DNA from: Candidatus Spyradosoma sp.
GTDB taxonomy: Bacteria > Verrucomicrobiota > Verrucomicrobiia > Opitutales > UBA953
DNA length: 64,000 nucleotides
Assembly: GCA_051884495.1 (NCBI GenBank)
Contig: JBJEVQ010000009.1
Span: 20,919-84,918 of the forward strand
Direction: 5' to 3'
This document shows, in pieces, positions 1 through 28,451 of the stretch. The position numbers and the translations under genes were made by a program. Within the stretch, counting starts at the first letter, position 1; the number at the start of each line of letters is the position of its first letter. The notes under the pieces were generated by a model. It was not told where the DNA came from, made no database searches, and saw only the letters and a program-made list of their open reading frames with translations.

Positions 1-1442
1 TCGCGGAAAACTTCCGCTTCTACCTGCAGGGTTTTTCGGAAAACGTCATCGACATCATCCAAAAATTCAATTTCGACAACGAAATCACCAAGCTCGCCGA
101 CAACGGCATCCTCTTCAGCGTCATCGACGAATTCTGCACGAAAAAAGCCTACCTCGGCGCCGACGCCGTTTCCGCCGTGGACATGGGCTACGTCTTCGAA
201 GAGCTCGTCCGCAAATTCTCCGAGAGCTACGACGAACACGCGGGAGCGCATTTCACCGCCCGCGACATCATCTACATGATGGCGGAACTCCTCGTCGCGC
301 CGAACAAAGCCGAGCTCCGGAAAAACGGAATCACCGCCATGCTCTACGACATGGCGATGGGCACGAGCCAGATGCTCGACTGCCTCGCCGAAAAGCTCCT
401 CGAAATCGACCCCGAAGCCGACCTGCACTTCTTCGGGCAGGAGCTCAACGAACAGACCTTCGCCATCGCCAAGGCCAACATGCTCATCCGCGGCGAACAC
501 GCCGACAACATGAAGCACGGCAACACGCTTTCCGACGACAAGTTCGGCGGCTACCTCTTCGACTACGTCATCTCCAATCCGCCTTTCGGCATCGAATGGA
601 AAAACGAGAAAAAAGCCGTGGAGGCGGAAGCGCGCCAAGGCGACGCCGGACGTTTCGGCGCCGGGCTTCCCTCCGTCGGCGACAGTCAGCAGCTTTTCCT
701 GCTCAACGGCGTCGCCAAGCTCAAAGACTCCGGGCGCATGGCGATCATTCAGAACGGCTCTCCGCTCTTCAAGGGCGACGCCGGATCCGGCGAAAGCGAA
801 ATCCGCGGCTTTCTCCTCGAAAACGACTGGCTCGAGGCCGTCGTTCAGCTTCCGAACGACATGTTTTACAACACCGGAATCTCCACGTACATTTGGCTGG
901 TCTCCAAGAACAAGGCGCGGGAACGCCGAGGCAAAGTCCAACTCATCGACGCGAGCCGATGCTTCGAGAAACGCCGCAAGAGCCTCGGCAACAAGCGCAA
1001 CGAGTTCACGGAACGCTGCATCGCGCTCGTCGCGAAGGCCTACCTCGAATTCGCCGACGCCGCTTATTCCGAAGCCGGAAAGATCGTCGAAAGCAAAATC
1101 CGCGACAACGACGACTTCAAGTTCACCAAGATCACCGTCGAACGTCCGCTCCGCGACGAAAACGGCGCGCCCGTCTTCAAAAAAGGCAAACCTCAGATCG
1201 AGTCCGACACCGAGTCCGTGCCGTTCAAGGAGGACGTCGGCGCCTACATGCGGAAAAACGTCCTTCCCTACGCGCCCGACGCAAGGATCAATCCCAAGAA
1301 GACCAAAATCGGCTACGAAATCCCCTTTACCCGCGAATTCTACAAATACGTGCCGCCGCGCCCGAGCGCCGAAATCTTCGAGGAGCTCAGACGTCTCGGG
1401 GCGCAGGAAGCGGAGCTCATGAAAAAAATCCTCGGGAAATGA
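1..1442 (+). CDS. hsdM: Type I restriction-modification DNA methyltransferase subunit HsdM (5' end lies outside the window)
   Basis: The frame is open from the window edge (frame 3) to the TGA at 1442. It carries YDMAMGTSQML (SAM motif I-like) and SNPPFGIEW (N6-adenine MTase motif IV). hsdS and hsdR lie in the same operon. Confidence 0.9.
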   Translation, partial: AENFRFYLQGFSENVIDIIQKFNFDNEITKLADNGILFSVIDEFCTKKAYLGADAVSAVDMGYVFEELVRKFSESYDEHAGAHFTARDIIYMMAELLVAPNKAELRKNGITAMLYDMAMGTSQMLDCLAEKLLEIDPEADLHFFGQELNEQTFAIAKANMLIRGEHADNMKHGNTLSDDKFGGYLFDYVISNPPFGIEWKNEKKAVEAEARQGDAGRFGAGLPSVGDSQQLFLLNGVAKLKDSGRMAIIQNGSPLFKGDAGSGESEIRGFLLENDWLEAVVQLPNDMFYNTGISTYIWLVSKNKARERRGKVQLIDASRCFEKRRKSLGNKRNEFTERCIALVAKAYLEFADAAYSEAGKIVESKIRDNDDFKFTKITVERPLRDENGAPVFKKGKPQIESDTESVPFKEDVGAYMRKNVLPYAPDARINPKKTKIGYEIPFTREFYKYVPPRPSAEIFEELRRLGAQEAELMKKILGK

Positions 1443-1464
1443 CGCCCGCCGCCCCTTTATTTCG

Positions 1465-1500
1465 GTTTACAAATTCGATAGTTTTTGATTTTTTGTAAAC
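1465..1500. promoter_or_regulatory. AT-rich perfect 9-bp inverted repeat GTTTACAAA-N18-TTTGTAAAC abutting the XRE gene start; candidate operator
   Basis: The arms lie at 1465-1473 and 1492-1500 and end immediately before the ATG at 1501. This is the only AT-rich patch between hsdM and the XRE/ImmA gene. No binding data exist. Confidence 0.35.
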
Positions 1501-2553
1501 ATGCAACCCGCCACCGACATCTTCCCCGTCCGTTTCCGACAGGCGCGCGAAATCGCCCGACGTTCCCTGCGCGAACTCGCCTCGGAGCTCCACGTCTCTC
1601 ACACGCTCCTCAACCGCTACGAGACCGGCGCCGCGAAGCCGGTCGCGTCCATGCTGCTGAAAATCGCTGACGCGCTCGGAGTCGCCCCGGACTTCTTCTT
1701 CCGAAGAGAACAGCCGGCGCTGCAGGAAATCCGCTTCCGCAAAAAATCCGCCCTCGGCGCGCGCGAGAAGCGCTCCATCGAAGAACGCGCCAAGGATTTC
1801 TTTTCCCGTTATCTCGAAATCGAGCAGATCGCCGCGCACGAAACGCCGCCGTTCCCGCGCTTCGAGGCTTCGCGGGAACGCTCGCCCGAAGCTTGGGCTC
1901 AGCGCCTGCGCGAGGACTGGCAGCTCGGAGACGATCCGATTCCCAACCTGCAGCAGCTTCTCGAAAACAAGGGCGTCAAAATTTTTGAAATCGACACCGA
2001 CAACGAAAAATTCGACGGCTTTTCCGCCGTCTGCGGCGACGCCGCCTTTCTCGTGATCGCCTCCTGGCTCAAAAAAGACCTCCCGCGAAAACGCATGACG
2101 CTCGCCCACGAGCTTGGTCACCTGCTCGTCGCCCAGGACGCGTCTTTCTCCGAGGAGGAGCACGAAGCCTTCGCGGATGCCTTCGCCTCGGCCTTCCTCA
2201 TGCCTCGGGACACTTTCTCCAAAATGTTCGGCTGGCGACGTTCCCGCGTTTCGCTCTCGGAGCTGCTTCCCGTCAAAGCCTATTTCGGCGTTTCGATCGC
2301 GGCGCTCATGTACCGCGCACGCGTGCTCGAGCTCATTTCCGAGTCGTCTTTCCGGCATTTCTGCATTGTCCGCAACAAATGGGGCTGGCGCAAAAAAGAA
2401 CCGGACTGCTATCGCGGCGAAGAAAGCTCTTCCCGCTTCGAACGGCTCGTGAAAAAAAGCGTCCAGGAAGCCGAAATCTCCGAGTCCAAGGGAGCCGCGC
2501 TTCTTGGCGTTCCCCTCGCGAAACTGAGAAAGGATCTCGCGAATGCCGTCTGA
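1501..2553 (+). CDS. XRE-family HTH fused to an ImmA/IrrE-type zinc metallopeptidase (COG2856-like)
   Basis: The N-terminal HTH-like segment is LRELASELHVSHTLLNRYETG. The C-terminal half carries the HEXXH motif LAHELGHLL. Length is 350 aa. Confidence 0.8.
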   Translation: MQPATDIFPVRFRQAREIARRSLRELASELHVSHTLLNRYETGAAKPVASMLLKIADALGVAPDFFFRREQPALQEIRFRKKSALGAREKRSIEERAKDFFSRYLEIEQIAAHETPPFPRFEASRERSPEAWAQRLREDWQLGDDPIPNLQQLLENKGVKIFEIDTDNEKFDGFSAVCGDAAFLVIASWLKKDLPRKRMTLAHELGHLLVAQDASFSEEEHEAFADAFASAFLMPRDTFSKMFGWRRSRVSLSELLPVKAYFGVSIAALMYRARVLELISESSFRHFCIVRNKWGWRKKEPDCYRGEESSSRFERLVKKSVQEAEISESKGAALLGVPLAKLRKDLANAV

Positions 2554-3064
2554 CGAAGACAGCACGTTCTTCATCCACGACGCCTGTCTGCTGATCGATC
2601 TCTGCGCGGGCGGTCTGCTCCCCGCATGGTTCGAGTCCGGGCGCCGCTTCGCCACGACGACGCTCGTCGTCGCCGAAGTGAAGGCGTCCGCGCAAAAAAA
2701 GGCGCTCGCCTCCTTCATCCGCGCGGGAACGCTCGTCGCCGAAGATCCGGAATTCGAAAAATTGCTGCTCGCCGACGGATGGGCGAAAACCCGCCGAGTC
2801 AGCCTCGCCGACGCCTCCGTCGCGCTGCTCGCGCGGGAACGCGGAGGAATTCTGCTTTCCGGAGACGACCGGCTGCGGAAACGCGCAAAGGAAGACGGCG
2901 TCGAAGTGCGCGGTCTCTTTTGGATTCTGGACACGCTCGTCGGAGAAGCCCGAATCTCGGAAAACGCCGCAGTCGGCGCGTTGGACGCGATTCTCGCCGC
3001 GGGAGCCCGGCTTCCGAAGAACGAATGCGAAACCCGCCTCAAGAAATGGAGGACGCAGAAATGA
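2543..3064 (+). CDS. PIN-domain (VapC-like) predicted nuclease
   Basis: The ATG overlaps the upstream gene by 11 nt. Acidic residues are spaced as in PIN folds (FIHDACLLIDL, VVAEV, LADASV, LLSGDDRL). The call rests on motif memory only. Confidence 0.55.
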   Translation: MPSDEDSTFFIHDACLLIDLCAGGLLPAWFESGRRFATTTLVVAEVKASAQKKALASFIRAGTLVAEDPEFEKLLLADGWAKTRRVSLADASVALLARERGGILLSGDDRLRKRAKEDGVEVRGLFWILDTLVGEARISENAAVGALDAILAAGARLPKNECETRLKKWRTQK

Positions 3065-4275
3065 CGCGGCCCGCACGAAAAATGAAGCCTTCCGGAATCC
3101 CGTGGATCGGAGACGTTCCCGCGGACTGGGAAAGTCGGCGCTTCAGACGCGCGGGACGATTCGTCAAAGGGAAATTGCCTTCGAACGACAACTCGAACGC
3201 GGAAGGCCTGCCGATCATCGGAGCTTCCGAAATGAACGGAAAGCCGCCGAGAACGTTCACGACGGACAGCTCTTGCCCGCAGTGCGAAAAGGACGACGTT
3301 CTGATCTTGTGGGACGGCGCGAATGCCGGATTCGTCGCGCAGGGATTCGCGGGAACGCTTTCGTCCACGGTCGTGAAATACCGCTGTGAGATTCCGGAAA
3401 CATGCCCGCGCTACGTTTTCTACCTTCTGAAATATTTTGAAACTTATTTCAGAAACAAGGTGAACGGAACGACGATTCCGCACATGAATCCGGCGTTCAT
3501 CGACGATTGCGCGCTTCTGCTTCCCCCGACGGAAACGCAAAAGAAAATCGCGGAATTTCTGGACGAAAAGTGCGCGGAAATCGATGCCCTGATCGCGGTG
3601 GAGGAAAAGATGATTGCGGAGCTGAAAAGCTACAAACAGTCCGTCATTACGGAAGCCGTCACGCGCGGCGTCCCTGCCGCCGCGAACGCCTCACGCCCCC
3701 TCAAAGACTCCGGCATTCCCTGGCTCGGCTTCGTTCCCGCCCATTGGGAAATCCTCCCATTAAAACGCTTGTGTAAAATGAATGCAGGAGAGAATTTAAC
3801 CTCGCTTGAGATTGAGAAAGAGGGAGAATTTCCTGTATATGGAGGAAACGGACTTCGTGGTTTTTATAAGAAATATAATTGTTCGGGCGAGTATATCCTT
3901 GTAGGCCGTCAAGGCGCGCTAGCTGGAAATATTCACAGGGTTTGCGGATCTTTTTGGGCAACAGATCACGCTCTCATAACACGTTGCTCGGGGCTGACTA
4001 ATATTCCATACCTTTCATATTTGCTGGAGGCAATGAATCTGAATCAGTATGCATTGCAAACAGCCGCGCAACCAGGATTGTCTGTAGGCTTGGTTCAGTC
4101 GTTGTTCACAACTGTCCCACCTCTTTCGGAGCAACAAGAAATCGTCGTCTTTCTCGATTCAAAAACCAAAAAAGTCGATTCTATGATTTCTCTCAAACAA
4201 GAGAAAATCACCTCTTTGCGAAATTACAAAAAATCCATTATTTTTGAGCATGTCTCCGGAAAGAAAGAAGTTTAA
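3061..4275 (+). CDS. hsdS: Type I R-M specificity subunit HsdS (start chosen at the ATGA overlap with the upstream stop)
   Basis: Two target-recognition halves each open with IPW(I/L)G.VPA.WE. They are separated by, and followed by, conserved helices (KMIAELKSYKQSVITEAVTRG; KITSLRNYKKSIIFEHVSG). The gene sits between hsdM and hsdR. Confidence 0.85.
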   Translation: MTRPARKMKPSGIPWIGDVPADWESRRFRRAGRFVKGKLPSNDNSNAEGLPIIGASEMNGKPPRTFTTDSSCPQCEKDDVLILWDGANAGFVAQGFAGTLSSTVVKYRCEIPETCPRYVFYLLKYFETYFRNKVNGTTIPHMNPAFIDDCALLLPPTETQKKIAEFLDEKCAEIDALIAVEEKMIAELKSYKQSVITEAVTRGVPAAANASRPLKDSGIPWLGFVPAHWEILPLKRLCKMNAGENLTSLEIEKEGEFPVYGGNGLRGFYKKYNCSGEYILVGRQGALAGNIHRVCGSFWATDHALITRCSGLTNIPYLSYLLEAMNLNQYALQTAAQPGLSVGLVQSLFTTVPPLSEQQEIVVFLDSKTKKVDSMISLKQEKITSLRNYKKSIIFEHVSGKKEV

Positions 4276-5690
4276 TTTATGACAGAGGATACCAAAAATA
4301 AGATTTTAAGCACTATTGAAAAAATCAGAAATCTTGATATTCAGAAGTGCCTTTCTCGAAATCTGCCTCCCAGTCAATCATTGGAAGACAGGAAAATCTG
4401 GGTTTTCAGCGGTGTCACGATTATTCCCGTAATCGAACGGGCGATGAAACAAATGGAGGCGTTTTTAAATGGAGACGAATATCCTGTTCATCTTAATACG
4501 AGTTTGGATTTTAGCCAAACTCCCATTGAAGCTTCGTTTTCCGCTTTATTATCTGCACTTGAAGCCGGAAATCATACTCGCCTCGGTCCATATCTACAGG
4601 CGATAATTAACTATGAAATCTTTCACGGAATTTGGGATCGAGGACGTGTAAATCTATTTTCTGTTGATGAGATAAACCTTGCGAACAAGAAATCTGAGTT
4701 AGAATCTTTGTTCTCCAAATTAAGTGAGGCTAAGGGTGCCTTTGAAAATCGCCTTAAACAACTTGACAATGAGCTTTTAGAAAAAAAGAATGCTCTTGAT
4801 ACAATTTCCGCTAACAAGACAAATTCGTCTAACGAGTTATCCCAAATCCGAGGGATAATTGCTGACGCGAACAAGGAAATTCAAAAGCAAAAGAATGATT
4901 TTACATATCTTTACGCGCAAGTAGAACAAAAAGAAAAGGATTTGACTAATTTTTTAATAGCGTCAAAAACGGCGCAAGAAATGGTTGAAAACCAAATTAA
5001 ATCCGCTCAAGAATCCATTGGGATATTAAAGGCGAATATTGATGAAGTTGAAAAACATAAATCGGAATTTGAAGGGTATAAAAAAGAAGCTGCGGAACAG
5101 GTTGCCTTAATCGCGAGCGCTGGATTGTCTGGATCATTTAAGCGTCGAGCTAACCGAATAGGGATTAACGTCATCGTTTGGTTCGTAGCAATTATTGCGG
5201 GTCTGATTGCTTCGGGCTATTGGTTGTGGTTTGCATTTACGCTTCTTCCCAATTTCATCGGAAATGGAATCGCAATAGATCTGACCTCCACATTGCTTTT
5301 CGTCGCGACATCCTTTGCGAAAATCTTTCCTGTCTATCTTGGAATGTCATTCATTTTTAATCAGTATACAAGGGAGCGTAAAACACAAGAGGCATACGAG
5401 TTCAAGGCTGCTGTCTCCGCGACCATCAAATCGTATTCAGATCAATTAGTCGCTCAAAGATATGCTCTTACAATCAACGACTTCTCAAATAATGGGAAAC
5501 CTGATACTGCCGCATGGGAAAAATATGTCGTTGAGCGCGACAAATATCGACGAGAGCTTATTCAAACCACTGTTTTAGGTCTCTACAAAGACATTGATAT
5601 AGAGGAAAAGCAATCTATGCCGTCTAATGGGAAAAACCTGAATATGAACGCGCTGAAGCAGGTCGCGGAAATCATAAAAAATCTGAAGTC
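3775..5690. other. Low-GC compositional island (about 35-40% GC against about 68% in the flanks) covering the second half of hsdS and the next gene
   Basis: A hand count of 3781-3840 gives 23/60 G+C, whereas 3661-3720 is above 70%. Composition returns to high GC exactly at the hsdR start near 5691. Confidence 0.75.
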
Positions 5691-5694
5691 GTGA
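4279..5694 (+). CDS. Hypothetical coiled-coil protein with two transmembrane helices (family not recognised)
   Basis: This is a 471-aa ORF. Its ATG lies 4 nt after the hsdS stop and its stop overlaps the hsdR GTG. A heptad-rich K/E/Q/L region spans about aa 133-275. Hydrophobic helices occur at about aa 296-360 (INVIVWFVAIIAGLIASGYWLWFAF; LTSTLLFVATSFAKIFPVYLGMSFIF). Confidence 0.6.
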   Translation: MTEDTKNKILSTIEKIRNLDIQKCLSRNLPPSQSLEDRKIWVFSGVTIIPVIERAMKQMEAFLNGDEYPVHLNTSLDFSQTPIEASFSALLSALEAGNHTRLGPYLQAIINYEIFHGIWDRGRVNLFSVDEINLANKKSELESLFSKLSEAKGAFENRLKQLDNELLEKKNALDTISANKTNSSNELSQIRGIIADANKEIQKQKNDFTYLYAQVEQKEKDLTNFLIASKTAQEMVENQIKSAQESIGILKANIDEVEKHKSEFEGYKKEAAEQVALIASAGLSGSFKRRANRIGINVIVWFVAIIAGLIASGYWLWFAFTLLPNFIGNGIAIDLTSTLLFVATSFAKIFPVYLGMSFIFNQYTRERKTQEAYEFKAAVSATIKSYSDQLVAQRYALTINDFSNNGKPDTAAWEKYVVERDKYRRELIQTTVLGLYKDIDIEEKQSMPSNGKNLNMNALKQVAEIIKNLKS

Positions 5695-8600
5695 CGTACA
5701 TGGATACTACGGAAAAGCGGTTTGAGAGCGACATTGAGGCGTTTCTGCTGAGCGAGGCGGGCGGCTACGCCAAGGGCTGCCGGGAAACTTACGACAAGGC
5801 GCGCGCGATCGACATGTCGGTGATGCAGGCGTTCATCGGGAAGACGCAGCCGAAGGCGTGGGCGCGTTTCTGCCGGGTTTACGGGAACGACGCGGAGGCG
5901 CAGCTCTACAAGACGTTTCAGCGCAACGTGGACGAGCACGGCCTGATTCACGTGCTGCGCAACGGCGTGAAGGACCGCGGGATCGCGCTGCGTTTCTGCT
6001 ATTTCGCGCCCGCGTCGGATCTGAACGCGGAGCTGGTCGAAAAATACGAGGCGAACATTCTGACGGAGCGTCGGCAGTTCCATTATTCGACGAGCAACGA
6101 AAATTCGATCGATATGGTGCTTTCACTGAACGGTGTTCCCGTGGTCGCGCTCGAACTGAAGAATCAGCTCAAGGGGCAATCGACGGCGGATTCGATGCGG
6201 CAATACCGGGAAGACCGCGACCCGCGGGAGCTGATCTTCAATTTCAACAAGCGCGTTCTCGTCTGCTTCGGGGCGGACTTGCGCGACGTGGTGATGACGA
6301 CCCGGCTCGACGGGGCGCGGACGCGCTTTCTGCCGTTCAACCAGGGGAGCAACGGAGCCGGGAACGTGGGCGACGGCGGGAATCCGGAAAATCCGGACGG
6401 CTATCCGACGGCGTATCTGTGGGAACGCGTGCTGCGGCGCGAAAATCTGCTGGCGCTGCTGCAGCATTACGTTTCGCTGCAGACGACGGAGACGCTCGCG
6501 CTCGAGAACGGACGGCAGGTCAAGAAGGCTTCGACGAAGCTGATCTTCCCGCGCTATCATCAGCTGGACGTCGTGGAAAAGCTGGTCGCGGACACGCGGG
6601 AACGCGGCGCGGGCAGGAACTATCTGATCCAGCATTCGGCGGGGAGCGGAAAATCGAACTCGATCGCGTGGCTGACGTATCGGCTCGCGTCGCTGCACGA
6701 CGCGTCGCGGGAGAGCGTTTTCCGGACGGTGTTCGTCGTGACGGACAGGCGCGTTCTGAACGCGCAGCTGCGGGAGACGATTCTGAGCTTCGAGCACAGC
6801 GCCGGTCAGATCGAGACGGTGACGGACAAGGACAATTCCTCCAAGCTCCGTGACGCGATCAACGACGGGAAGCGGATCGTCATCACGACGCTTCACCGCT
6901 TTCCGCTCGTCTATAGGGAAATCGACGCGCACGCGGGGAAGAACTTCGCGGTCATCGTCGACGAGGCGCACAGCTCCCAGACGGGCAAGAGCGCGCAGAA
7001 GCTGAAGACGGCGCTCGCGGACACGGAAAGCGCGCTGAAGGAATGGGCGGAGCTCGAGGGCAAGGAGGAAGCGGCGCTCAAGGACGAAATGGACGTGCTC
7101 TCGGAAACGCTGCTTTCGCAGGGGCAGCACGCGAATCTTTCGTTCTACGCGTTCACGGCGACGCCGAAGCCGAAGACGCTGGAGATTTTCGGCGAGAAGC
7201 GCGGGGACGGCTCTTTCGACGCGTTCCACCATTACTCGATGCGGCAGGCGATCGACGAAGGCTTCATCGAGGACGTGCTGAGGTTTTACACGACTTACGA
7301 GACGTCCTACGAAATCGGCAAAATCAGCGAAGACAATCCCGAATACGAGGAGCCGCCGGCGACGAAGGCGATCAGGGCCTATCACGACGGGCACGGTTTC
7401 GTGATCGATCAGAAGGCGGCGATCATGACGGAGAAGTTCCGCGAGATCACGCTGAACAGGATCGGCGGCAGGGCGAAGGCGATGATCGTGTCCCCGTCGC
7501 GCGCGCACGCGGTCCGGTATTTTTTCGCGATAAAGAAATACTGCGCCGAGCGCGGTTATGTGGACGTGAGGCCGCTCGTCGCGTTTTCGGGAAAAGTGAA
7601 ATACGACGGCAGGGAATGGACGGAGCCGGAGCTGAACTCCGCGGGAACGCTGAGGATTTCCGAAGCGCAGCTGCCGCTGTATTTCGGAAGCGAGATGTTC
7701 AACCTGCTGATCGTCGCGGAAAAATACCAGACGGGCTTCGACGAGCCGTTGCTGCACACGATGTTCGTGGACAAGAAGCTGTCCGGCGTGAAGGCTGTTC
7801 AGACGCTCTCCCGGCTGAATCGGCAGTGCCCGGGCAAAATCGACACTTACGTCTTCGATTTCGCGAACTCGAACGAGGACATCGCCCGCGCGTTCAAGCC
7901 GTTTTACGAGGACACGTTTTTGGAAAAGGCGATCGACGTGAACGACGTGTACACGTTTTGGGCGGAGCTGGAAAAAATGCGTCTCTGGTCGCGGGAGGAC
8001 GAAGACAAAGTCTATGCCGTCTATTCCGCCGCCGAACAGAGTCGGACCGCTCTGGGAAAAATCTCGAGCGCGCTCGTTCCCGCGACTTCCGCCTATAATC
8101 GGCTCTCGGAGGAAAACAGGTTCAAGGCGCGCGCGCTGATCAAGAATTTCTGCCGCTTTTATGCCTACGTCACGCAGATCGTGCGCACGTTCGACGCGGA
8201 GCTCCACAAGAGCTACATTTTCGCGGAAATCTTTTATCGCTTTCTGCCGAAAAGCGCTCACGAGAAGGTCGTTCTCGGCGACAAGATCGCGCTCGTCAGC
8301 AACAAGCTGACGGAAACGTTCAGCGGCGCGATCGCGCTCGCGCCGGAAAAGGCGGACAAGACGTTCCCGCCGGAGGCTCCGCGGAGAAAGCCCGCGAAGC
8401 CGACGCGGACTTTCGACACGCTCAAGAACATCATCGACAAGATCAATCTGATGTATCAGGGCGATTTTTCGGAGGCGGACCGCGTCATCGTCGAAGAGAT
8501 ATTCGATCGGCTGCAGGCGCGCCAGAAGCAGCTTTCGAAGCTCGCGAAGGCTTCGACTCCGGAGATGTTCGCGAAGAATCTTTTCCCGGCGGAATTCAAC

Positions 8601-8753
8601 AAGGTGGCGAACGAGTGCTACAATCGACGAATGGACGCTTTCGCCAAGCTTTTTGAAAACGCGGATTTTTACAGGCACGTGATGGCGGAGATGGGCGCGG
8701 CGCTCTACGCCGACCTGCGCAACCGGCGAGAAGACGCGAAGCGGAAGGAGTGA
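5691..8753 (+). CDS. hsdR: Type I restriction enzyme R subunit HsdR (an alternative ATG start lies at 5700)
   Basis: 1020 aa with SF2 helicase motifs QHSAGSGKS (Walker A) and VDEAHSSQ (DEAH box). The N-terminal region looks nuclease-like. It is the last gene of the hsd operon. Confidence 0.9.
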   Translation: MTYMDTTEKRFESDIEAFLLSEAGGYAKGCRETYDKARAIDMSVMQAFIGKTQPKAWARFCRVYGNDAEAQLYKTFQRNVDEHGLIHVLRNGVKDRGIALRFCYFAPASDLNAELVEKYEANILTERRQFHYSTSNENSIDMVLSLNGVPVVALELKNQLKGQSTADSMRQYREDRDPRELIFNFNKRVLVCFGADLRDVVMTTRLDGARTRFLPFNQGSNGAGNVGDGGNPENPDGYPTAYLWERVLRRENLLALLQHYVSLQTTETLALENGRQVKKASTKLIFPRYHQLDVVEKLVADTRERGAGRNYLIQHSAGSGKSNSIAWLTYRLASLHDASRESVFRTVFVVTDRRVLNAQLRETILSFEHSAGQIETVTDKDNSSKLRDAINDGKRIVITTLHRFPLVYREIDAHAGKNFAVIVDEAHSSQTGKSAQKLKTALADTESALKEWAELEGKEEAALKDEMDVLSETLLSQGQHANLSFYAFTATPKPKTLEIFGEKRGDGSFDAFHHYSMRQAIDEGFIEDVLRFYTTYETSYEIGKISEDNPEYEEPPATKAIRAYHDGHGFVIDQKAAIMTEKFREITLNRIGGRAKAMIVSPSRAHAVRYFFAIKKYCAERGYVDVRPLVAFSGKVKYDGREWTEPELNSAGTLRISEAQLPLYFGSEMFNLLIVAEKYQTGFDEPLLHTMFVDKKLSGVKAVQTLSRLNRQCPGKIDTYVFDFANSNEDIARAFKPFYEDTFLEKAIDVNDVYTFWAELEKMRLWSREDEDKVYAVYSAAEQSRTALGKISSALVPATSAYNRLSEENRFKARALIKNFCRFYAYVTQIVRTFDAELHKSYIFAEIFYRFLPKSAHEKVVLGDKIALVSNKLTETFSGAIALAPEKADKTFPPEAPRRKPAKPTRTFDTLKNIIDKINLMYQGDFSEADRVIVEEIFDRLQARQKQLSKLAKASTPEMFAKNLFPAEFNKVANECYNRRMDAFAKLFENADFYRHVMAEMGAALYADLRNRREDAKRKE

Positions 8754-24469: not shown

Positions 24470-24683
24470 CACGGAAACCGTTCACGCAATTTTTTCAAAA
24501 CCACGGATGAACACGGACGCACACGGATTTTTCTTTTAACGGAGGACAGACTTCCGGTCCGTCGCCGCGGTGTCCGCGTGTTCGCTGCGTCCGCCTCTCG
24601 GCGGAGACGTGGACGTCCCCGCTCCCATGAGGCGTTCCCCGAACGCGAAGTTTCAAATTCGTGAAAATTCGTGTTCATTCGTG
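24470..24683. repeat. Palindromic intergenic element, CACGRA-unit subfamily, copy 1
   Basis: CACGGA occurs at 24502, 24512 and 24522, and TTCGTG at 24658, 24668 and 24678, an exact 10-bp phasing. The termini are AACCACG...CGTGGTT. Confidence 0.65.
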
Positions 24684-24699: not shown

Positions 24700-24735
24700 A
24701 AAAAAAACGTCCCCGAGGATTTCTCCCCGGGGACG
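24700..24735 (-). terminator. Rho-independent terminator downstream of the adhesin gene
   Basis: On the minus strand the stem CGTCCCCG/CGGGGACG is followed by TTTTTTTT. Confidence 0.6.
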
Positions 24736-24857
24736 CACACACTAACTAACACACACTATGAAAAAATGGATGAGAAAAAGTCGAGGAGTAGAGAAGGTTT
24801 AAAAGCTTGAAAAGTAATTACCTTTTAAACTCCTAAACTCCTCCACTCCTAAACTTT

Positions 24858-27800
24858 TTAAGCTTTCTTCCTCCGACGGCGCGTTCCCGCGAGCGCGAGC
24901 GCCCCGAGCCCCGCCAACAGCCCGAACATGCTCGGCTCCGGAATCGTCATCGTCAACGAAAGCGTCGAACCGTCGTAAGCGAGCGATTCCGCCCAGCCCG
25001 TCTGCGTCCAGCCTTTCAACTCGACGGCGTTTCCGAGGAGGCTCGTGCAGTCTGACGCGAAATCGACGCCGTTGTAGCTCAACGCGGACGCCGTGATGAT
25101 GTCCAACGCGAACGTCTCCGTCGCCGACGCGTAATTCGACAAGTCGATGATGAGCTTGCCGCCTTCGCTGATGGAGACGGAAGTCAACGAAACGGAGACA
25201 CTGTCGGAAACGGAAACTTCCAACGCCGCGCCGGAGGCGACCGTCGTCGCGCCCGCAATCGTCATCGCGCTTTCGCTCGTAGCGATGCGCAACGTTCCGC
25301 TTTCCGCGGAGATCGTCTGATAAGTGGTGGTCCAACTACCGCCATCGTACGTCGACGAATACAACATATTCGTTCCCGAAAGTTCCAACGTTTCCGCCCC
25401 CTGCTTGACCAAAGAAACGTTCGTCAGCGTTCCCGTGAACTCGCCGCCGCCGTTCACCGTCAGCGTCGCGCTGTCCGTGCCGGAGGCGAGCCCGACCGAG
25501 CCCGCGCCGGAAAGTCCGGCGACCGTCACGGCGGATGCGCCGAGATTCAGCGTCGCGCCGCTCTTCACTTCGACGCCCTTCGTCGTGCCGAGCGCGTTCG
25601 CGTGCCCCGCGACGACCGTTCCCGCCTCGATCACGGTTCCGCCCGTGTAGGCGTTGTTCCCGCTCAGCGTCAGCGTTCCCGCGCCCGTCTTGATGAGCTT
25701 TCCGGAACCCTCAAAGATGCTCGCGAAAGCCGCATCCGTCGCGGCGCCGTCCGCTTTCTGCAGCTCGAAAGTCGTTCCTTCGGAAGAATTCAGCGTAAAC
25801 TTCAGGTTCGACGAAACCGCGCTTGACCAGCTCTCCGACGCGACAATCGTCGTTTTGTCGAGATACGTCGTTTTCCCAGTTCCTCGGTTATTGCTGATCG
25901 TGATTCCGCCGCTTCCGATTTCAAGGCGATTCACGTCGATTGTATAAGTCCCGACATTGCCGATGTTCAATGTTCCTACCTTTATCGTACCGTCGCCGGT
26001 AATGACATTGGTCGTCTGGTTACCGTTGCCGCCGGTCGCGAAAGACAAAGCCCCTGAGACGTTCAGTTCGCCGTCCACGCGCAGAGTGCCCATCCCCCAA
26101 GAGTTCGTGAAACTCGTCGCGTTGACCGTCGCGCCGCTTTCGATCGTCACGTTACGTGCGTAGTTGTCGCTGCTCGTGGTCTTAATTTCCCCTACCGAGT
26201 AGCTCGTTCCCGCCGGCTCCGTCGTGCCCTTGAACACGACCGTGCCGCCCGTACCGTTGAAGTCGATGTTCCCGGCGGAAGTCGTCGAAACGATGTTGAC
26301 CGTCGCGCCAGCGACACAGAGGTTGCCTTCCGCAAAAGCCACATTGACCGATGTTCCCGCATTCGTCAGAGCGAGCGTTCCCGCGCCGGTTTTCGTCAGC
26401 GTTTCCGAGCCCGAGAGCACGCCGGAGAGCGTCAGCGTGTACGTCTGCGTGTCGATTGTTGAATCCGCCGCGACGTTCACCGCGTTCGCGAGCGTGAGCG
26501 TCGCGCCCGCCTGCAGCGTGCCGCCGGAAAGAGAAATGACATTCGTTCCGAGGGGAGCTGCCGCTGCAACCGCGAGTGTGCCGCCCGTGACGGAGACGCC
26601 GCCCGTAGCCGTGATCGTTCCGCCCGTGAACGAAACCGTTCCCGCGGAAATCGTCACCGTATTCGCATTCACGCCGGAATCCGCCACCGTGACGGTCGTC
26701 GTTTCGTCTTTGCTGAACACCACGGAGTCGCCCGCGTAAAACGCGTCGTCCGCATCGCGTTCATCTTTCCACGGCTTGCTCGACGGCTCAGTCCCGACGA
26801 CCGCTTCCGACCACGTGTCCGAGGCGGAACCGTTCCACGTGAGCGTCTTCGCCTCGACATAAGAGATATTCACACTCCCTGCGGTGGAAACGTCCACCGT
26901 CGAGCGCCCGAGCATGACGCCGTTGTAAGTAAAGTTTTTGTTCGTAAGCGTATTCCACTCCACGCCGAAAATCGTTCCCGTGCCGCTGATGAGAGAAACC
27001 GAAGAGCTGATGACAGAAACATCGAACACCGTCCCCGTCGAGAGCGTCACCTGACCCGAGTTCTGAATCGCGTTCGCGAGCGAGACCGTCGCGCCGGAAA
27101 GGTCAAGCACGCCGTTTTCCAGAACCTTCACGACGCCGCTGTCCGAGGTCGTCAGCGTGCCGGCGACGCTCGCCGTGCCCTTGCTGGTATCGGACGTGCC
27201 GGAGAAAATCAGCTCACCGCCGGAAACCGTGACGTCGCCAAAATAGCTCGTTCCCGAGAACGTCTGCGTTCCCGTGCCGGATTTCGTCAGGTTCAGCGAA
27301 GTCTGATTCGTCGCACTGCCGACCGACCCCGCAAAGGAATACGTGCCGCTGCCGGCAATGTTCAGCGTGCGTGCCGTGGTATCGTTGGTGGACGCGGGCC
27401 CATTCGTGTAAGTAGTATTAGACAATGCCGCATGAGAGACGAACTTCGCGCCCGAGGCGCCGTCAAGTCCCGCTATGGACACATTGCTCGCGGAAACATA
27501 GCCGACGACATTATTGTTCGCCAGATTCAGCGTGGCGCTCGACGCGGACGCGGAAAGGCAAATCGCCTGATTGTTGGACCCGTCACTCGAAATTTTTATC
27601 GTTCCCGCGAAAGCCGTATCCGCATCGAGGAACGTCACCAAAGACCACGCGCCTGTTCCAGTCCGATTGACTTCCAACGTCCCCGTGCCGGTCAGCGCGG
27701 AAGAGGAACCGATGGTGAAGAATCCCCATGCGCCGCTCGAAGCCTTGACGGTGTAGTCGCCCTCAATTGAGAGCGTGCCGACCGTCGTGTAGGCGGCTGA

Positions 27801-27956
27801 AGTCGTATAAGTGTTTCCGCTTTTTGTTACGTTGGTGGTGTCCAACGTGACCGTTCCGTCGGCGCTCGCCGTTCCGGAAAGCGTCGCGCCGAACGCGGGA
27901 ACGCTCAGCGCCGCGGCGGCGAGGAGGGAGGTGATAAGCAATTTTGATGTTTTCAT
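24858..27956 (-). CDS. Large surface protein with autotransporter-associated beta-strand-type repeats and a C-terminal PEP-CTERM anchor
   Basis: The signal peptide is MKTSKLLITSLLAAAALSVPAFG. The body is G/T/S/A/N-rich with repeats such as KTGAGTLTLSGNNAYTGGT. The C-terminus is IPEPSMFGLLAGLGALALAGTRRRRKKA. Confidence 0.85.
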   Translation of the reverse strand: MKTSKLLITSLLAAAALSVPAFGATLSGTASADGTVTLDTTNVTKSGNTYTTSAAYTTVGTLSIEGDYTVKASSGAWGFFTIGSSSALTGTGTLEVNRTGTGAWSLVTFLDADTAFAGTIKISSDGSNNQAICLSASASSATLNLANNNVVGYVSASNVSIAGLDGASGAKFVSHAALSNTTYTNGPASTNDTTARTLNIAGSGTYSFAGSVGSATNQTSLNLTKSGTGTQTFSGTSYFGDVTVSGGELIFSGTSDTSKGTASVAGTLTTSDSGVVKVLENGVLDLSGATVSLANAIQNSGQVTLSTGTVFDVSVISSSVSLISGTGTIFGVEWNTLTNKNFTYNGVMLGRSTVDVSTAGSVNISYVEAKTLTWNGSASDTWSEAVVGTEPSSKPWKDERDADDAFYAGDSVVFSKDETTTVTVADSGVNANTVTISAGTVSFTGGTITATGGVSVTGGTLAVAAAAPLGTNVISLSGGTLQAGATLTLANAVNVAADSTIDTQTYTLTLSGVLSGSETLTKTGAGTLALTNAGTSVNVAFAEGNLCVAGATVNIVSTTSAGNIDFNGTGGTVVFKGTTEPAGTSYSVGEIKTTSSDNYARNVTIESGATVNATSFTNSWGMGTLRVDGELNVSGALSFATGGNGNQTTNVITGDGTIKVGTLNIGNVGTYTIDVNRLEIGSGGITISNNRGTGKTTYLDKTTIVASESWSSAVSSNLKFTLNSSEGTTFELQKADGAATDAAFASIFEGSGKLIKTGAGTLTLSGNNAYTGGTVIEAGTVVAGHANALGTTKGVEVKSGATLNLGASAVTVAGLSGAGSVGLASGTDSATLTVNGGGEFTGTLTNVSLVKQGAETLELSGTNMLYSSTYDGGSWTTTYQTISAESGTLRIATSESAMTIAGATTVASGAALEVSVSDSVSVSLTSVSISEGGKLIIDLSNYASATETFALDIITASALSYNGVDFASDCTSLLGNAVELKGWTQTGWAESLAYDGSTLSLTMTIPEPSMFGLLAGLGALALAGTRRRRKKA

Positions 27957-28002
27957 TGTGTGAATATGTTTTGGTTTTCGTTGAATTTTTACGGGGATTC
28001 TA

Positions 28003-28367
28003 CCCCGGTTGCGAATACCGAGGGGGAACGCCTTCCAGCCCTTTATTCATCACGTTTTGTCAAACAATCAAATATAAGTTTAATCTTCAACGCAAAGAAC
28101 GCGAAGACTTTGACCACAAAGTCAAAGGAAGTTACAGAAAGTTTTTTGACCACGAATCGACACGAATTTTCACGAATTTCGAGCGGCGTTCCCGTGAAAA
28201 CCGCGTCATTCACCCAAAAATCTCTTCCACTTGAAGCTCTGGCGAGAAAAACTTTGCGCGGCGCTCCCGACAAGCGACTGGAAAGTCGCTTCCCCGAAAA
28301 GGTTTCCGTGCCTTTCCGTGTTTTCCGTGGTCAAAAATTGTGCTTGCACCGGTATTCGCAACCGGGG
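28003..28367. repeat. Segment bounded by a perfect 18-bp inverted repeat (CCCCGGTTGCGAATACCG / CGGTATTCGCAACCGGGG), upstream of the adhesin gene
   Basis: The arms lie at 28003-28020 and 28350-28367, with 329 bp between them. The left arm is 47 nt from the adhesin start codon. Confidence 0.6.
28151..28329. repeat. Palindromic intergenic element, CACGRA-unit subfamily, copy 2 (inverted relative to copy 1)
   Basis: CACGAA occurs at 28151, 28161 and 28171, and TCCGTG at 28305, 28315 and 28324. The arm ATTCGTGAAAATTCGTGT is identical to copy 1 on the opposite strand. Confidence 0.65.
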
Positions 28368-28451
28368 GAAGCGGGGCGGAAGCCGGTTCCCTTTAAAAAA
28401 TCCGCGCGGGAAGGATTCCGAGGACGCGCCGTCCCCTGCTCTCCCGCGGGA

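Follow-up and report, generated by a model that had tools for sequence, protein, structure and literature searches.

The subject of this report is a 365-bp element bounded by an 18-bp inverted repeat and located upstream of an adhesin gene in a 64-kb stretch of DNA from Candidatus Spyradosoma sp. (contig JBJEVQ010000009.1), all 64,000 nucleotides of which are called the window below. The 329-bp segment enclosed by the repeat occurs in both orientations in natural populations of the species, with breakpoints exactly at the repeat arms, and the same module, with an arm core of its own at each locus, precedes at least five other genes of the genus that code for PEP-CTERM surface proteins. We consider that the element is a site-specific invertible switch (inverton) controlling transcription of the adjacent PATR/PEP-CTERM gene, and assign to this reading a probability of about 0.75. 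A phase-variable switch before a surface-protein gene had been proposed in the first-pass annotation of this DNA, and the proposal is supported by the presence of both orientations of positions 28021-28349 beside the fixed nrdG gene, and by assemblies which break at the repeat. The features on which the argument depends are these, in coordinates of the window:

28003-28020, no strand assigned: gene-proximal arm of the inverted repeat, CCCCGGTTGCGAATACCG, with the core CGGT-ATTCGCA-ACCG when read toward the gene
28350-28367, no strand assigned: distal arm, on the nrdG side, exact reverse complement of the gene-proximal arm
28021-28349, no strand assigned: invertible segment, 329 bp in the window
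24858-27956, minus strand: adhesin gene (the controlled gene), encoding a 1032-amino-acid PATR-repeat protein with PEP-CTERM; ATG at 27956
27997-28002, minus strand: -10-like hexamer TAGAAT, putative, in a fixed position immediately beyond the gene-proximal arm and 41-46 nt before the ATG
28344-28349, plus strand: -35-like hexamer TTGCAC, putative, directly adjoining the distal arm on its inner side and pointing away from the gene in the window
28040-28110, no strand assigned: AT-rich block, conserved among paralogous modules
28305-28329, minus strand: array 1, three copies of CACGGAA with about 10-bp phasing, adjoining the -35-like hexamer and conserved in all paralogous modules
28151-28176, plus strand: array 2, three copies of CACGAAT with about 10-bp phasing, inverted relative to array 1
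28452-28964, minus strand: nrdG, anaerobic ribonucleotide reductase activase, 170 amino acids; fixed upstream flank and reference for orientation calls
About 29051-31354, minus strand: nrdD

Orientation of the segment was surveyed in contigs encoding exactly the NrdG protein of the window, together with further contigs and the locus of an isolate, with nrdG serving as the fixed flank (loci from other assemblies bear numbers preceded by L). The full-length element in the orientation of the window was found at eight loci, namely the window itself, L007, L013, L014, L015, L131, L132 and L156, and the gene-proximal 18-bp arm was present in each of the other seven as well; L131, L132 and L156 come from other samples in which the locus was spanned unflipped. 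In other strains, the segment at this locus is 288-362 bp long. In the contig L017 (SRR18323991), nrdG and the distal arm are followed by AGGGGGAACGCCTTCCAGCCC and its continuation, i.e. by the segment flipped exactly at the repeat. Over the 158 nt past the distal core, this contig matches the gene-proximal end of the segment, taken as its reverse complement, at 154-156 positions (97-99%), as compared with 32-51 of 158 for the unflipped sequence. The same flipped junction, over 12 nt, was found in L020 (SRR25667332). The flipped form, for which a search of raw reads had been suggested, was recovered from public assemblies instead. At a paralogous locus (L154/L155, from pig-gut and other samples), the module was also assembled the opposite way round relative to its gene.

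Positions at which assemblies terminate point in the same direction. Five contigs from five samples stop at the arm or 12 nt past it: the SPAdes contigs L021 (81 kb) and L022 terminate at the last base of the distal arm, that is, at its inner edge, and the Logan contigs L018, L019 and L020 exactly 12 nt inward of this arm. Logan contigs were, as we take it, built with k = 31, and the stop at the arm plus 12 nt would then arise because 18 + 12 equals k-1, a branch point between unitigs which appears when the arm and the sequence inside it are joined to two outer flanks. Breaks at this point would indicate that both orientations were present in the sample. The repeat alone could not account for them, since 18 bp cannot break an assembly at these values of k.

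The repeat itself is non-random. The match between 28003-28020 and 28350-28367 is perfect, as had been reported, with 329 nt between the arms and no extension past 18 bp; none of 100 dinucleotide shuffles reached two matches to the 18-mer (mean 0.06), and within the window, even with up to three mismatches allowed, it was found just at the two arm positions. All of the neighbouring genes lie on the minus strand, in the order nrdD, nrdG, a 495-bp intergenic region containing the element, and the adhesin gene. The gene-proximal arm is placed upstream of the adhesin ATG, as described before, with 46 nt between them. The AT-rich stretch noted inside the segment is real (GC content 0.33 at 28050-28149), and a nested 12-bp inverted repeat (28143-28154 and 28326-28337) encloses both phased arrays.

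Related modules were sought by looking up the contigs of adhesin-family members and by scanning genomes with the conserved inner-end pattern. The same module was found upstream of PEP-CTERM genes at five other loci (L137, L146/L133-135, L152, L154/L155 and L278), its length across the loci being about 220-550 bp; in L146 and L133-135 it adjoins an ABC-transporter locus. Four of these modules are held by a single isolate genome, that of Candidatus Spyradosoma sp. SGI.093 (Verrucomicrobiota, Opitutia). The controlled genes all encode signal-peptide/PEP-CTERM proteins. Paralogous modules are homologous throughout the segment and beyond both arms, and therefore whole upstream regions must have been duplicated, instead of elements having been inserted.

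Comparison of the six loci defines the structure of the arms. All 12 of them have the form CGGT-N7-ACCG, with the inner ACCG invariant and the outer CGGT showing three single mismatches. The 7-nt core is TGCGAAT at the window locus and TAAAAAT, TATGCAG, TACGAAT, TATGGAT and TTTCGAG at the other five, with no mismatch between partner arms at any of the six. Since the cores are matched within loci and differ between them, identity of the partner arms appears to be required, and no particular sequence. In the sites of tyrosine recombinases, such as lox, FRT and dif, the overlap region must match between the partners. Inverted half-sites around an overlap of 6-8 bp, identical within a pair and varying between pairs, are seen here too, and by this analogy we infer that the arms would be core sites of a tyrosine recombinase. 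Such an enzyme would have to act in trans, and it is the architecture of the site that suggests its class. Trans-acting invertases are known and common. The pattern of a serine invertase system of the Hin/Gin/Cin type (sites of about 26 bp with a central 2-bp crossover and dyad symmetry, an adjacent invertase gene and an enhancer) does not fit: the 18-mer lacks a dyad about its centre, and no open reading frame with a Resolvase domain occurs in the window. An open reading frame of 334 amino acids adjoining L137, covered by the recombinase search, encodes an aldo/keto reductase.

Some of these modules are more complex. In L278, outside the distal arm of the 550-bp switch (positions 430-570), there is a second copy of the usual inner gene-proximal end (GATGAATAAAGGGCTG...GGCGTTTACCCCC), which may point to a second switch, either tandem or remnant. 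A recurrent intergenic sub-element of Spyradosoma, consisting of a short hairpin (GGCGACATTCCTGTCGC) followed by TTCCTCGAAATCC...CCGCAAAGACGCCAAGACGCAAAGATTTTT, was seen in L131, L133, L146, L152, L154, L276 and L278. Several switches contain it in their variable centres, it is present in other intergenic regions too, and it explains much of the variation in length of the invertible segments (222-550 bp); a short hairpin related to it is present at 28272-28291 of the window.

Scans with the 18-mer define the distribution of the arm itself. With one genome per species, 12 loci were found, 11 of them single matches against about 17 expected by chance (our own estimate); the sole inverted pair was at locus L007 of the isolate SGI.093, in which the exact 18-mer forms this one pair only. 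JGI metagenome contigs gave 26 single matches, none homologous to the locus beyond chance. Further copies, which had been suggested as a test of the element's nature, are thus missing from these collections beyond the pair in SGI.093, all the remaining matches being single and at chance level. L007 is orthologous to the window: the arms are the same, nrdG and the flanks differ at few positions, and the centre of the element is an unrelated sequence. In distant relatives (NrdG at most 86% identical), nrdG is followed by ligA, or by another gene in the most distant ones, and neither the adhesin gene nor the element is found there; therefore, deep conservation at this position cannot be used as evidence.

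The promoter of the switch had been supposed to lie within the segment enclosed by the arms. A link between promoter and segment is retained in our interpretation, but the promoter is probably split across the gene-proximal arm and not wholly internal, with the -10-like TAGAAT outside the arm. Equivalents of this hexamer (CATAAT three times, CAGAAT and CAAAAT once each) occupy the same position in L137, L146, L152, L154 and L278, and the -35-like position is TTGCCA, TTGCCT or TTGCAC in all six loci; both hexamers are conserved in spite of divergence of the adjacent bases. The spacer of 17-18 nt is formed by the arm itself plus 2-3 nt. The window locus, once flipped, would read TTGCAC-18 nt-TAGAAT, and in L154, which was assembled flipped, TTGCAC-17 nt-CATAAT already adjoins the gene. 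When the segments were inverted in silico, the best gene-directed match formed at the arm at every locus, and in the flipped state only (8-10 of 12 positions in our own consensus scan). The common orientation places CCCCCT at the -35 position, and therefore the window and most of the assemblies are read as OFF; a flip would be predicted to turn the adhesin gene ON. A literature search for split-promoter invertons, which was a weak one, found no description of them.

One mechanism consistent with these observations would involve a tyrosine recombinase encoded in trans and acting on the arms, with CGGT/ACCG as dyad half-sites and the matching 7 nt as the overlap. Locus-specific overlaps would keep different loci from recombining together. 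The -10-like hexamer would stay outside the arm, and the -35-like TTGCAC, an A-rich stretch and the phased CACGGAA array would sit at the far end of the segment, so placed that inversion could bring the -35-like hexamer 17-18 nt upstream of the -10 and switch the adhesin ON.

A separate problem is posed by the phased arrays. The phased repeats mentioned in the first-pass annotation do exist, in the form of two threefold arrays; they belong to a separate nested element resembling repetitive extragenic palindromic (REP) sequences or miniature inverted-repeat transposable elements (MITEs) and found across many phyla. All six modules retain array 1 (TTCCGTG three times, then GGTCAAAAA) beside the -35-like hexamer; L152 and L154 lack array 2, its inverted copy. 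Near-identical strains (the window, L007/L013, L016/L131 and L156) have different centres between the arrays, and the centre is not an inverted version of that of another strain, as the sequences are unrelated. A second pair of arrays, located 3' of the adhesin gene (24502-24683), is absent from L007.

The array 18-mer TTCCGTGTTTTCCGTGGT was found at at least 119 loci, as compared with about 17 expected by chance (again our own estimate). Its hosts among the matches listed include Planctomycetota, Verrucomicrobiota, Lentisphaerota, Kiritimatiellota, Alpha- and Gammaproteobacteria, Desulfobacterota, Acidobacteriota, Spirochaetota, Chloroflexota, several candidate phyla and Methanosarcina. The matches (L158-L275) are often arranged as inverted pairs, which span 59-369 nt and whose centres are unrelated. 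The pairs of Schlesneria and other Planctomycetota look MITE-like, having an additional outer repeat (CCCGGATGATTC) and being flanked by YTAG-like direct repeats; in Marinobacter daqiaonensis, five array elements are present within 8 kb in a REP-like manner. Inverted arrays separated by several kb (L170, L230, L253 and L271) enclose housekeeping genes, as far as the genes can be identified, e.g. mutL, accC and galT, with no transposase among the genes inspected there. The regions downstream of the arrays shared no gene family among the matches listed, and a plasmid collection searched with the array element gave one weak match, in Aquisphaera. The idea that the arrays are sites of a Spyradosoma-specific activator is weakened by this cross-phylum distribution. 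In the switch, the CACGGAA array may be a passenger or an upstream promoter element. The arrays as such may be binding sites for a transposase or a host factor, bent-DNA elements, or something else.

Several observations weigh against the switch as outlined above. For the binding arm of a recombinase, half-sites of 4-5 bp are short. Pfam scans detected no Phage_integrase or Resolvase domain in the roughly 56 open reading frames of the window, in agreement with the earlier remark that no recombinase is seen there, or beside L137, L146 and L152. The TTGCAC of the window matches TTGACA at three of six positions, promoter rules for Opitutia are not established, and the promoter was assigned purely by consensus matching; the CACGGAA array beside the -35 belongs, moreover, to an element of many phyla. 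Mixing of orientations within a sample was read from contig end positions, flipped and unflipped contigs coming from different samples, and at the window locus it was only at the distal side that the flipped junction was recovered.

The origin of the contigs from different samples, together with the lack of an invertase in the window and beside three of the paralogous modules, is what one would expect if the orientations were fixed differences between strains, produced at the arms by rare homologous or replication-slippage recombination and not by a programmed switch. We regard this explanation as very unlikely. The five contigs which stop at the arm or 12 nt further behave as contigs from a within-sample mixture would. 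RecA-dependent recombination usually needs repeats longer than 18 bp, and the repeat is below that length. At all six loci, the cores of the two arms are still identical in spite of divergence in the sequence next to them, which argues for selection on the site. It could also be supposed that the segment does flip but carries its whole promoter in the AT-rich block facing the gene, in which case the window would represent the ON state. This block is indeed conserved in the paralogous modules, faces the gene in most of the assemblies, and contains TATATTTG, which in our own reading resembles a -7 element of the Bacteroidota type; an internal promoter is also the usual arrangement in invertons (PMC11892184). 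Yet a consensus scan of positions 27800-28600 in the window orientation detected no sigma-70-like site on either strand (and no terminator), and our own scan of the block gave no convincing gene-directed promoter in the window, with matches of only 8/12 in two paralogous loci. In six loci, the -35- and -10-like hexamers that flank the arm have been conserved at fixed positions though the bases around them have diverged, and L152 has lost most of the AT-rich block and kept the split arrangement. A wholly internal promoter is, in our view, unlikely.

The first-pass annotation had also left room for a MITE, i.e. for the whole 365-bp unit having landed before the adhesin gene with the 18-bp repeat as its terminal repeat. 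Its small size and terminal inverted repeats would fit, as would the nested CACGGAA-array element, which belongs to a multi-copy family that in Planctomycetota, with its outer repeat and flanking YTAG direct repeats, resembles a MITE, and the absence of the second array element (24502-24683) from the close relative L007. For the unit bounded by the 18-bp repeat, however, this alternative was abandoned as highly improbable: none of the six loci shows a target-site duplication, SGI.093 contains a single pair of the exact 18-mer and not copies at many loci, and paralogues are homologous past both arms, the whole upstream region having been duplicated. Independent decay of transposon ends would not keep cores that co-vary, matched within a locus and different between loci, and transposition does not re-insert an element the opposite way at the same base pair, as is seen in L017, L020 and L154. 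A structured RNA or 5' leader with the arms as an 18-bp closing stem is hardly credible. Both strands do fold better than shuffled controls (z = -5.5 and -4.6), but the nested inverted repeats themselves account for this; an Rfam scan of 27800-28600 with E up to 10 gave three chance-level matches (E = 0.8-2.7), far under gathering scores, the centre is swapped for unrelated sequence between near-identical strains, and inversion of the DNA was directly observed.

Having weighed these alternatives, we retain the invertible switch as the best explanation. As to its particular construction, we would tentatively propose a distinct inverton design, combining a split promoter with heterospecific 7-nt overlaps, which would allow one trans-acting recombinase to flip each locus independently, and with CACGGAA arrays that would bind a widespread, uncharacterised DNA-binding or mobilising factor. 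Taken jointly, these assumptions are possible rather than probable.

The gene under the proposed control belongs to a large family. Its product has a signal peptide, PATR repeats (PF12951) and a PEP-CTERM tail, and its description as a giant PEP-CTERM adhesin holds with regard to the kind of surface protein and not to the size, 1032 amino acids being large rather than giant. Members of the family have near-invariant ends (MKTSKLLITSLLAAAAM... and ...TIPEPSxFGLLAGLGALALAGTRRRRKKA) and mosaic bodies; the adhesin of L007 shares with that of the window the signal peptide and the C-terminus, and differs from it in the body. Look-ups of identical proteins for the window adhesin and for the next gene downstream returned no exact record. 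Alleles at the nrdG-linked locus (the window, L007:1833-4301, L013, L131 = P0010 and L156 = P0013) have 822-1166 amino acids and are down to about 36% identical, with near-identical flanks, a common signal peptide and PEP-CTERM end, and mosaic blocks common to family members. Such diversity suggests that the locus varies by cassette exchange or gene conversion as well as by the ON/OFF switch. The contig L015 stops 24 nt into the adhesin gene, which is consistent with a 5' end repeated across paralogues. On the minus strand 3' of the adhesin stop codon (about 24700-24736), a GC-rich hairpin is followed by a T-run (GCGTCCCCGGGGAGAAATCCTCGGGGACGTTTTTTTT), is conserved in L007, and is probably the intrinsic terminator of the gene. 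A further family member, P0002 at the rpsB-tsf locus (L129/L130:1700-2500), is not preceded by the CGGT-N7-ACCG module. Nested inverted repeats are present there, with 21-bp arms GGTGAGAGATGAGAGGAACAA 139 nt apart and 13-bp arms 195 nt apart, along with phased repeats of the GGATG type, and these may represent a different switch or repeat element.

Other observations concern the window more generally. The gap between nrdD and nrdG contains a strong hairpin (28989-29044; 23-nt arms, 91% complementary, with a 10-nt loop). The 8-mer CGGGAACG/CGTTCCCG (e.g. at 28024, 28185, 28476 and 28816) occurs 180 times in the 64 kb against about 4 expected, about equally on both strands and also inside genes, and is frequent in the distant Opitutales loci L026 and L027; 37 occurrences of GGCGTTCCCG compare with about 0.4 expected. 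The excess of the 8-mer resembles a DNA-uptake sequence or another genome-wide signal. Positions 1-8750 are taken up by a type I restriction-modification locus, with hsdM (3-1439), a gene for a helix-turn-helix/M78-peptidase protein (1489-2550), hsdS (2626-4275) and hsdR (5628-8750). It also holds an open reading frame for a coiled-coil protein of 471 amino acids (4279-5694), whose GC content at third codon positions is 0.38 as compared with about 0.85 elsewhere, and this part of the locus, with its low third-position GC, looks horizontally acquired.

The results presented here are direct sequence evidence of phase-variable DNA inversion in an uncultured genus of gut Opitutia, outside Akkermansia, and the targets of the switches are a large mosaic PATR/PEP-CTERM family. 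To our knowledge, regulation of this class of proteins is essentially unstudied. Cores that co-vary within a locus and are specific to it would be a natural example of how many invertons of one genome are kept from inter-locus recombination, and the proposal of a split promoter gives a clear prediction for the ON and OFF states. In metagenomics, such switches would explain the recurrent contig breaks beside surface-protein genes in Spyradosoma. Inversion as such is expected for a gut genome of Verrucomicrobiota; the comparative evidence is unusually clean, and provides testable design rules.

Switches of this kind are already known in gut bacteria, Verrucomicrobiota included, and the case of Spyradosoma is a further example. 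In a long-read survey, Verrucomicrobia, represented by Akkermansia only, ranked first in intergenic invertons per genome, with a count of 5.55 (PMC10028968). About 32 invertons of Akkermansia share one common arm motif and an embedded promoter motif (PMC11892184), and the cps1 capsule switch of that genus, according to PMC13343947, which cites Jiang et al. 2019, was shown experimentally, with CGGATT..AATCCG as the arm motif. The two systems come from the same phylum and from the gut, and both comprise many intergenic invertons with one family of arm motifs, surface structures as targets and no need for an adjacent invertase. Spyradosoma, in contrast, belongs to the class Opitutia, its targets are PATR/PEP-CTERM proteins and not capsule loci, and its arm CCCCGGTTGCGAATACCG does not fit CGGATT..AATCCG, apart from a loose CGG...CCG resemblance. 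The promoter, embedded in the segment in Akkermansia, is apparently split across the arm in Spyradosoma.

The fimS element of Escherichia coli (314 bp, 9-bp arms, FimB/FimE) is likewise an intergenic ON/OFF segment of about 300 bp placed before an adhesin or fimbrial gene, with a site of the tyrosine-recombinase style; its whole promoter is inside and its recombinase genes are adjacent, whereas in Spyradosoma there are none within 64 kb, the arms have 18 bp, and the -10 is apparently outside. Invertons of Bacteroides fragilis and B. thetaiotaomicron, which serve capsule and surface-protein genes (Mpi, tyrosine invertases), resemble those described here in the occurrence of several loci with one arm family, in the presumed flipping in trans and in the diversity of the cell surface that they create in the gut. 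They differ in having one arm consensus per group and a promoter of the TAnnTTTG type inside, unlike the 7-nt core proper to each Spyradosoma locus. In Mycoplasma penetrans, each of the mpl (P35) lipoprotein genes has its own invertible promoter, with 12-bp arms and promoter-like sequence inside. That system is similar in its large family of variable surface proteins, a small invertible element per gene and combinatorial variation, and dissimilar in the unrelated phylum, the arm length and the internal position of the promoter-like sequence. Assembly of a promoter across a junction has a parallel in hybrid promoters of insertion sequences, with the -35 in the end of the element and the -10 in the flank, and isolation of site pairs by matching spacers has one in heterospecific spacer variants of lox and FRT; these are by-products of transposition or engineered sites, and not a natural family of reversible switches. 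What sets Spyradosoma apart from Akkermansia is a different class, a different arm and a different kind of target gene, and the combination of a split promoter with locus-specific overlaps may constitute a variant design.

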